Shown here: positions 27,613-28,205 of the stretch, one piece after another
How positions within the stretch are numbered: position 1 is the first letter of the stretch
Layout of the letters: each line of letters opens with the position of its first letter
DNA from: a virus
Lineage: Duplodnaviria; Heunggongvirae; Uroviricota; Caudoviricetes
IMG/VR virus record: IMGVR_UViG_2718217859_000011
Location: 1-64,000 of that record
DNA: 64,000 bases
Reading direction: 5' to 3' (one strand)
Position numbers and translations under genes: made by a program
The notes under the pieces: generated by a model
The model's database searches: none
The model's input: the letters and a program-made list of their open reading frames with translations, nothing else
What the model was told of the DNA's origin: nothing

Positions 27613-27777
27613 TTAACTACCTGGCATGTCCTTTTTCACCAAAGGAAAAAGCACCACCACAATACCGACCACCAGCACTCCATCCGCCAGCACCGACATG
27701 ATCCTGCTGGTGAAATCCACCATCACCACCAGAAACAGCAGGAGTGCCACAGCGGCCAGACGCAGTTTTACCGTCAC
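27613..27777 (-). CDS. putative 54-aa two-TM membrane peptide coupled to the TerB-like gene
   Basis: Untracked ORF with GTG start overlapping the TerB stop (GTGA) and GGAGAA SD; product MTVKLRLAAVALLLFLVVMV...GVLVVGIVVVLFPLV. Confidence 0.35.
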   Translation of the reverse strand: MTVKLRLAAVALLLFLVVMVDFTSRIMSVLADGVLVVGIVVVLFPLVKKDMPGS

Positions 27778-28205
27778 AGGTGGTTCTCCAGTCGCAGGCC
27801 AAGAACACCAGCAATCTCTTCCAGAACCTTACGCTCTTCCGGCTCAATTTCACCATCTGCTTCAGCAATGGCCACCGCCACATCCAGCACATCTTCCGCT
27901 TCACGCGTATCGTGTTTCACATCTTCAATTTCACGCAACGCTGCACGACGACCAATTTTAAAATTGGTGTCAAGCTGACCTGTGATCGTGGCACTGATGG
28001 CATTAATTTCTGACGTAAATGCGGACAATGCTGGCTGGTTACGTAATACCTGTTCGATCTTCGCTTTCTCTGAAGTCTCACATTCACCATCTGCATAGGC
28101 CACCAGGTAGGCAGCATTAATAACCGCCTGTGCCAGATCGCGTTTCTCAAACTTTTTAATTTCAGTTGCTGCTCTGCGGGTTTTCTTTTTGAAAATACCA
28201 AACAT
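27774..28205 (-). CDS. TerB-like domain protein
   Basis: 143 aa with two repeats of the TerB-type motif (AAYLVAYADGECETSEKAKIEQVL and VAVAIAEADGEIEPEERKVLEEI). Confidence 0.55.
   Translation of the reverse strand: MFGIFKKKTRRAATEIKKFEKRDLAQAVINAAYLVAYADGECETSEKAKIEQVLRNQPALSAFTSEINAISATITGQLDTNFKIGRRAALREIEDVKHDTREAEDVLDVAVAIAEADGEIEPEERKVLEEIAGVLGLRLENHL

Follow-up and report, generated by a model that had tools for sequence, protein, structure and literature searches.

A 64,000-nucleotide (nt) stretch of viral DNA (IMG/VR record IMGVR_UViG_2718217859_000011, positions 1 to 64,000; hereafter the window) carries on its minus strand two overlapping genes, tciA and tciB, preceded by a conserved 5' leader (Table 1). 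From its sequence, the locus is almost certainly a phage accessory module made up of a structured leader, a TerB-fold protein and a DUF3927 membrane protein. TciA scored 60.9 bits (cut-off 24.4, E 1.8e-16) with the Pfam family TerB (PF05099) over residues 26-138, which bears out the TerB-type protein recognised in a preliminary description of this DNA, and it belongs to PHROG 632 ('tellurite resistance', E 1.7e-69). TciB matched DUF3927 (PF13064) over positions 5-51 of the 53 in the model (59.5 bits, cut-off 25, E 3.2e-16) and belongs to PHROG 1470 ('TciB-like inhibition of cell division or resistance to colicin', E 1.4e-24). In RefSeq the products are listed as WP_001299895.1, 'tellurite resistance TerB family protein', and WP_000216624.1, 'DUF3927 family protein'. 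The 54-amino-acid (aa) open reading frame (ORF) had earlier been called untracked, which is incorrect: its product falls in Pfam and PHROG families, RefSeq annotates it, and in phage P1 it bears the name tciB.

The tciA-tciB pair is thus already known and named, and no function has been established for it by experiment in the searched literature. It was reportedly named by homology in phage P1 in 2004, and the names are used in the records of phages JLK-2012, D6, P1, P7 and 434 (tciB in the last). The conserved coupling of the two genes across phage types, the leader RNA, an alternative membrane partner and the STnc100/tRNA neighbourhood are small observations that may be new, as judged from a non-exhaustive search. 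Between positions 27400 and 28400 several RefSeq E. coli chromosomes are 100% identical to the window, and at least 80% of this 1-kb stretch was present in 785 out of 5426 complete E. coli genomes, about one in seven. The tciA, tciB and tciC genes of P1 are transcribed during P1vir infection (bioRxiv 10.64898/2025.12.28.696737). All three were non-essential in a CRISPR interference (CRISPRi) screen (PMC10695390), in agreement with the earlier view that the pair serves neither a structural nor a canonical lysis function.

The two genes are joined by a stop/start overlap. The minus-strand junction reads CTG GAG AAC CAC CTG TGA CGG, where the GTG start of tciB shares its TG with the TGA stop of tciA and the Shine-Dalgarno sequence GGAGAA lies 6 nt upstream, as previously read. 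From this overlap, TciA and TciB are therefore expected to be made from one mRNA in a fixed ratio. The GTG start is supported because the predicted N-terminus, MTVKLRL, aligns with that of ATG-started homologues (M-x-K-L-R). Hidden Markov models (HMMs) built from homologues were used to scan 107 sequences, comprising the fetched loci and the window region around the pair, and tciB was found directly after tciA in 100 of the 106 sequences encoding tciA. There were 29 distinct junction sequences, chiefly of the GTGA, TAATG/TGATG or ATG-n-TAA types. Lambdoid prophages of E. coli have the form cTGTGAc; P1, D6, Pantoea, Serratia and Pectobacterium have TAATG or TGATG; a few other loci place an ATG five bases ahead of the stop; and the N4-like Salmonella phage FSL SP-076 has TAAATG. 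The conservation of the small ORF and of its coupling, which the preliminary description had left to be checked, was thus found alongside the TerB profile match. Ratios of nonsynonymous to synonymous substitution (dN/dS, Nei-Gojobori, enterobacterial loci) were 0.01-0.05 for tciA and 0.08-0.42 for tciB. Both are real genes under purifying selection, and the constraint on TciA is very strong.

TciA contains the paired DG-x5-E motifs YADGECETSE (residues 37-46) and EADGEIEPEE (residues 115-124). These are the two 'ADGE' repeats noticed before, and their key residues, D39/G40/E46 and D117/G118/E124, were invariant or nearly so among 15 homologues. A profile of these homologues matched Klebsiella pneumoniae TerB (2JXU) over residues 13-137 with an E value of 1.2e-14. 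In an AlphaFold2 model of a natural fusion protein (P0125), the TerB core of TciA had a predicted local distance difference test score (pLDDT) of 80-90, and the best Foldseek match of the core was the TerB-like structure 2H5N (probability 1.0, TM-score 0.56-0.62). Residues 1-22 are basic and amphipathic with a net charge of +7, while the remainder is acidic (net -13); no hydrophobic or transmembrane (TM) segment was found in TciA by hydropathy. NCBIfam gave weak partial matches only, including one to DjlA (PRK09430, residues 112-164) with 29 bits against a cut-off of 162. Five proteins considered as domain fusions (P0125, P0186, P0249, P0287 and P0293) were rejected as such, being frameshift or chimeric gene calls.

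TciB is clearly predicted to be a small helical membrane protein. Its hydropathy profile marks residues 7-20 and 26-47 as hydrophobic, with the conserved D21-F-T-S-R25 between them and Lys/Arg at both ends, whereas AlphaFold2, run with 34 diverse sequences, gave one continuous helix from residue 3 to 48 (pLDDT 92.5). The peptide had been described as having two TM segments; the two hydrophobic stretches are there, but a hairpin is not established. D21 is invariant, and F22, S24, S28 and D32 each occur in 90% or more of the sequences. When 1.84 billion representative proteins were searched with a profile, just 116 DUF3927 clusters were found, nearly all of 45-65 aa.

Upstream of tciA, about 135 nt are conserved whatever adjoins them further upstream. 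This leader was found in prophages of E. coli, Franconibacter, Pantoea, Pseudescherichia, Buttiauxella and Klebsiella as well as in jumbo phages (loci L006, L088-L095, L107, L110 and L118-L121 besides the window), and 20 leaders, from six enterobacterial genera and five jumbo phages, were aligned. With the proposed structure 90.8% of the cells in the alignment were paired, against 37-48% when the partners were slid. Compensatory changes were seen in all five pairs of hairpin P0 and in two pairs of helix P1 (AU 13/GC 7 and CG 13/UA 5). For the candidate pseudoknot helix P2, 83% of the cells were paired with one compensatory change. Pairing of a CCUUUC anti-Shine-Dalgarno sequence was predicted by partition-function folding in only some of the 20 leaders, the stability of the single-sequence fold was ordinary (z = -0.55) and the leader matched no Rfam family. 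A search for the leader motif in IMG/VR returned 116 loci: 90 with an intact tciA, 24 with a frameshifted or disrupted tciA and two at contig ends. Since the motif always precedes an intact or decayed tciA, the leader belongs to this gene. It may be a previously undescribed cis element.

Table 1. Features of the tciA-tciB locus and its surroundings (window coordinates unless another record is named)
Feature	Position	Strand	Description	Basis
tciA	27774..28205	minus	143 aa, ATG start, TerB-fold protein, predicted cytoplasmic	ORF list, Pfam, PHROG, RefSeq
tciB	27613..27777	minus	54 aa, GTG start, DUF3927 hydrophobic protein, all-helical by prediction	ORF list, Pfam, PHROG, RefSeq
tciA structured 5' leader	28206..28341	minus		alignment of 20 leaders
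Leader hairpin P0	28335-28331 with 28324-28320	minus		RNAalifold and pair counts
Leader helix P1	28309-28302 with 28261-28254	minus	8 bp	RNAalifold and pair counts
Leader possible pseudoknot P2	28293-28285 with 28233-28225	minus	candidate, not claimed	
tciA Shine-Dalgarno	28220-28215	minus	within leader	
Terminator-like GC hairpin and T6 run	28342..28365	minus	between tRNA-Arg and leader	terminator scan
tRNA-Arg(TCT)	28379-28455	minus	whole tRNA block 28379..28632	ARAGORN, RefSeq
Diverged argN-like gene	28469-28549	minus	'tRNA-OTHER' in RefSeq	RefSeq, alignment to argN
ileZ-like tRNA (CAT)	28557-28632	minus		ARAGORN, RefSeq
N6/N4 DNA methyltransferase	28673..29731			RefSeq annotation, Pfam
Q antiterminator	31213..32034		followed by two hypothetical genes	RefSeq annotation
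STnc100-family small RNA (RF02076)	27349..27547	minus	148.7 bits, gathering score 47, model 1-206 of 206	
Class II holin S	26837..27052	minus	start of lysis cassette, downstream of module; L001 8438-8653	RefSeq
213-aa ORF	26192-26833	minus	PHROG 1085, no Pfam family; between holin and lysozyme	
122-aa ORF	25814-26182	plus	PHROG 1853; between holin and lysozyme	
Lysozyme	25206..25739			RefSeq annotation
PHROG 27356 ORF	~2932-3153 in phage AF (L114); 2938-3153 in phage Lana (L116)		also in L101 and L104	

The identical locus in RefSeq (L001, whose coordinates plus 18399 are those of the window) is the late region of a lambdoid prophage. Its methyltransferase-tRNA block is about 91% identical to that of 275 phage records, mostly of phages encoding Shiga toxin 2 (Stx2). 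In the Stx2a phage WGPS2 the gene order is methylase, ileZ, argN, argO, stx2A, stx2B. The stx genes thus directly follow the same tRNA block, at the position that the preliminary description had given for them. On this gene order, a single slot after ileZ-argN-argO, bounded by the tRNA block and by STnc100/holin, is filled either by tciAB or by stx2AB, which bears on the exchange of cargo among Stx phages. The block had been said to hold three tRNAs. RefSeq does list three genes, but ARAGORN and Rfam call two; the middle one is argN-like, with conserved acceptor and T arms and with a D loop and anticodon arm that have diverged from argN of WGPS2.

Downstream of tciB, a strong minus-strand hairpin with a U-run was found by folding, ending at about 27349, 264 nt beyond the tciB stop. 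The terminator reported earlier before S is therefore present as a structure, but it is the 3' end of an STnc100 small RNA (sRNA) gene. STnc100/PasD-type sRNAs have been described in this neighbourhood, with TerB among the genes conserved near PasA and PasC (Zhu, Shabalina, Storz; bioRxiv 10.64898/2026.05.13.724894). Between STnc100 and holin S, a position from which PasA/PasC-type sRNAs have been reported beside holins, the plus strand gave a weak Esr41-like Rfam match (27193-27283; 39.3 bits, far below the gathering score of 102). Sequence related to STnc100 was also found on the other side of the pair: the terminator-like hairpin between tRNA-Arg and the leader weakly matched positions 163-206 of the STnc100 model (window 28336-28379, 14.1 bits). 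The cassette in the window is thus flanked by an STnc100 remnant upstream and a full copy downstream, an arrangement that would lend itself to exchange of the cassette by recombination. In loci of Pantoea, Pseudescherichia and Klebsiella without an upstream tRNA, the leader is likewise preceded by this hairpin. A full STnc100 copy (4675-4873) is present in Pantoea locus L110, with the order Q, tRNA, STnc100, leader, tciA, tciB, holin, and partial STnc100-like matches of 33-40 bits, below the gathering score, lie directly upstream of tciA in P1 (L005 1781-1900) and D6 (L003 3606-3726). No minus-strand promoter was found between 26800 and 32200 by a sigma-70-like consensus scan, and weak candidates only were seen by eye.

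Relatives of TerB were found by tblastn in 125 phage records, and the tciA-tciB pair recurs in at least six phage types recognised as different. In lambdoid prophages of Klebsiella and Pantoea, Q is followed by TerB, DUF3927 and the lysis genes. In P2/186-like E. coli prophages the early operon includes the pair and runs Cox, Fil, TerB, DUF3927, Dam methylase, gpA. The order in P1 is dmt, Pban with C1 operators, tRNA-Asn, tRNA-Thr, tciA, tciB, tciC, tRNA-Ile, ban, and the arrangement in D6 resembles it. The virulent jumbo Erwinia/Salmonella phages ChrisDB, Asesino, Huxley, pEa_SNUABM_9 and pSal-SNUABM-04 carry the pair within a tRNA array, with TciA 66-76% identical to that of the window, and it is also present in the virulent N4-like phage FSL SP-076. 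The pair is always co-oriented within lytic transcription units in the lambdoid, P2-like and P1 loci examined. An Erwinia phage TerB has been listed as 'standalone', with a suggested role against superinfecting phages (Iyer et al. 2021, PMC7824862); contrary to that listing, it does have a TciB partner.

This distribution bears on two readings of the pair. One is that it modulates the timing of lysis, TciB acting on the holin or on the membrane potential and TciA tuning it, so that together they set the triggering of S. The position directly upstream of the lysis cassette in lambdoid prophages would suit such a role, as would the very small, hydrophobic, helical TciB with its conserved acidic residues. 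However, in P1, D6 and the P2-like, N4-like and jumbo phages the pair is located away from the lysis genes, in P1 it belongs to an early C1-controlled operon, and neither Pfam nor PHROG gave similarity to a holin or antiholin family; this role is considered distinctly improbable.

The other reading is that the pair is a lysogenic-conversion moron that raises host fitness through tolerance to tellurite or oxidative stress, through colicin resistance or through defence of the lysogen against phages. It occupies the exact slot of stx2AB after ileZ-argN-argO, it is dispensable in P1, tciA and tciB are termed morons in papers on D6-like phage-plasmids (PMC6799933), and the ter operons from which TerB is known give tellurite, phage-inhibition and colicin phenotypes. 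A benefit to the lysogen is nevertheless the weaker reading because the pair is also found in strictly virulent jumbo and N4-like phages, is always placed in the direction of lytic operons, has a terminator-like hairpin upstream and no sigma-70-like promoter in the scan, and is often decayed. In 24 of 114 assessable leader-bearing E. coli prophage loci of IMG/VR tciA was frameshifted or disrupted, and many N-terminally truncated TerB proteins, with large clusters of 116-120 aa, are present among E. coli protein clusters, which would not be expected for a trait selected in the host. Moreover, terB alone is considered insufficient for tellurite resistance (PMC8421299). Host-fitness cargo is, on balance, an unlikely explanation. 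The preliminary description had spoken of a compact cargo module; the pair is indeed accessory and sits in the stx2AB slot of near-identical backbones, but use in the lytic phase accounts for it better than a benefit to the lysogen.

The decay itself has a recurrent form. About one in five prophage copies of tciA has decayed through slippage in an A-run at codons 6-8. In the common allele the length of this run is changed and the product is MFGIFGKKSPQSGNGN*, sometimes with a further stop. Such alleles were observed in L124, L126, L129, L210 and others, and the equivalent part of the window lies at about 28180-28205.

The association with tRNA genes was assessed in 25 diverse loci. In nine of them (the window, JLK-2012, D6, P1, ChrisDB, L087, L088, L102 and the Paracoccus locus L104) same-strand tRNA genes lie within 1 kb of the pair. 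Obligatory tRNA adjacency was rejected, as the other 16 have no tRNA within 1 kb on either side. Among 80 E. coli loci of IMG/VR, 54 have a tRNA within 600 bp upstream and 26 have none, and tRNA adjacency was likewise found in other jumbo phages (L118-L121) and in Pantoea L110. The link between pair and tRNA genes is thus recurrent across unrelated phage types and not obligatory. The anticodon sets of the tRNA arrays beside the pair differ between phage types.

In some loci TerB is coupled to a different small protein. In Pseudomonas phages AF and Lana and in prophages of Pseudomonas juntendi and Paracoccus, the gene behind TerB overlaps it by GTGA or ATGA and encodes a PHROG 27356 protein of 67-73 aa, unrelated to DUF3927. 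Besides a single TM helix at the N-terminus, this protein has a conserved C-x-W-Y-G-Y-Q-T-E-R...V-G-C-M-V domain; it matches no Pfam family, and in phage AF the ORF is unannotated. That a different membrane protein is coupled to TerB elsewhere supports the view that a membrane partner is what TerB needs. In Vibrio phage K479 and two Marinomonas loci, TerB has no coupled partner.

The alternative partner also bears on a role in ion or metal handling, in which the pair would be a miniature TerB-TerC: oligomers of TciB, with D21 and D32, would form a cation path, TciA would bind metal, and the availability of Mn, Zn or Ca for replication would be affected. Conserved acidic motifs are present in both proteins, and TerC-family proteins are linked to Mn and Zn handling (PMC12054061, PMC10197570). 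However, oligomerisation of TciB and conduction of ions are assumptions, TciB has no sequence similarity to TerC, and the PHROG 27356 partner, with its single TM helix and soluble Cys-rich domain, is not channel-like. This makes metal handling very unlikely.

Upon comparison with known systems, the closest likeness is to tciA-tciB-tciC of P1. The same two families are encoded in the same order with a stop/start overlap (TGATG in P1, GTGA in the window), tRNA genes and a DNA methyltransferase are nearby in both, and an STnc100-like element is adjacent in both. The proteins have diverged, with 41% identity between the two TciA and about 50%, by eye, between the two TciB. Of the two, P1 alone has the coupled tciC, encoding 35 aa with one TM helix; a TciC-like ORF is absent from the window, where 65 nt separate the tciB stop from the STnc100 sRNA. 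Furthermore, the P1 genes belong to the C1-controlled ban operon, whereas those of the window prophage lie downstream of Q, and the 5' leader of the window is not present in P1.

Bacterial ter operons make their hosts resistant to tellurite and to colicins and inhibit phages. TerB of K. pneumoniae (2JXU), from terZABCDE, shares the same domain with TciA over nearly its full length and is similar in size. TerB reportedly associates with TerC, an integral membrane protein (Turkovicova 2016, cited in PMC11003894). In contrast to these operons the window has no terC, terD, terE, terZ or terA, the 54-aa partner is unrelated to TerC, and no ter genes were found in the related loci examined (JLK-2012, D6, P1, jumbo, lambdoid and P2-like). 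By analogy, tellurite resistance from tciA, as a terB on its own, would be unlikely. The 'tellurite resistance' label has spread through phage annotations, and its meaning for phage TerB is questionable. DjlA, an inner-membrane DnaK co-chaperone of E. coli, carries both a TM helix and a TerB-like domain on a single chain (bioRxiv 10.1101/2024.08.29.610257), a combination that tciB and tciA would recreate as two chains. TciA has no J domain, its score is far below the cut-off and it is not a member of DjlA.

By analogy with these proteins a mechanism can be proposed, in which TciB would sit in the inner membrane and TciA would dock there via its polybasic amphipathic N-terminus and/or via TciB. 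The docked pair would resemble, on a small scale, the TerB-TerC complex or DjlA. That TciA and TciB form such a membrane-associated complex is about evenly balanced between being right and wrong. The module would be transcribed with the lytic programme, in the window prophage by antiterminated read-through from Q across the hairpin ahead of the leader. The complex might then condition the inner membrane of the infected cell against pore formation from outside, for instance by superinfecting phages that inject their DNA or by colicin-like toxins, and premature loss of the membrane potential would be avoided until the phage's own holin fires. The counterparts of these effects in ter operons would be the phenotypes 'Phi' (inhibition of phages) and 'PacB' (resistance to pore-forming colicins). 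T4 Imm and HK97 gp15 are tiny inner-membrane proteins of the lytic cycle that block the entry of rival-phage DNA and are not known to have a TerB partner; their likeness to the proposed mechanism is a functional analogy. Among the roles considered, a function as membrane guard or in superinfection exclusion during lytic growth is favoured, tentatively and by analogy, although it is still less likely than not.

Several observations weigh against it. The function rests on analogy with ter operons, where terB acts with terC, terD and terE, and no other ter genes lie near the pair in the annotated identical locus. The literature searched, which was not exhaustive, mentions tciA and tciB by homology only, and no functional test was found in it. 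PADLOC-DB 2.0 holds no defence model for TciA or TciB; the sole match of TciA was PDC-S48 (E 0.0028, 14.8 bits) and TciB had none. The evidence on the topology of TciB is split between two stretches by hydropathy and one unbroken helix by AlphaFold2, and if both termini are cytoplasmic, little of TciB would be exposed for binding of TciA. In the AlphaFold2 model of the natural frameshift fusion P0125, taken as a stand-in for the complex, no confident contact between TciA and TciB was observed and the TciB part was a single helix with a pLDDT of 47-76. Late expression in lambdoid phages would be rather late for exclusion, and a second promoter could lie at the STnc100 element immediately upstream of S.

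The lack of matches in defence collections also touches on a sensor-effector arrangement, in which TciB would be a pore-forming or depolarising peptide checked or triggered by TciA, as a device of abortive infection or of competition between phages. This would suit the 'inhibition of cell division' part of the P1 name and the tight 1:1 coupling of a soluble ligand-binding domain to a tiny hydrophobic peptide; TerB is considered a ligand-sensing domain in Ter systems (PMC7824862), and DUF3927 is a small family that evolves fast relative to tciA. On the other hand, no match to known defence or toxin models was found, and the soluble-first gene order and the occurrence in virulent phages fit an abortive system poorly. 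Such a device appears highly doubtful.

A wider proposal would regard leader-tciA-tciB as a self-contained, horizontally mobile, RNA-switched module of the lytic phase that temperate lambdoid prophages share with virulent jumbo phages, with a TerB sensor and an interchangeable micro-membrane partner (DUF3927 or PHROG 27356). It would represent a new class of membrane-level inter-phage competition or counter-defence, with a tRNA/STnc100 placement that is functional beyond a shared recombination hotspot. At present this combination must be called rather improbable. With TciA strongly constrained, the pair widespread and no experiment found since its naming in 2004, tciA-tciB merits attention.

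Two minor features of the surrounding late region were noted. Just past the Q stop (31100-31215, minus strand) a weak promoter-like sequence is followed by a terminator-like hairpin (31132..31113), plausibly a short pR'-tR' unit right after Q. In the lysis region, the holin-endolysin pair is unusually interrupted by the 213-aa ORF and the 122-aa ORF on the opposite strand.

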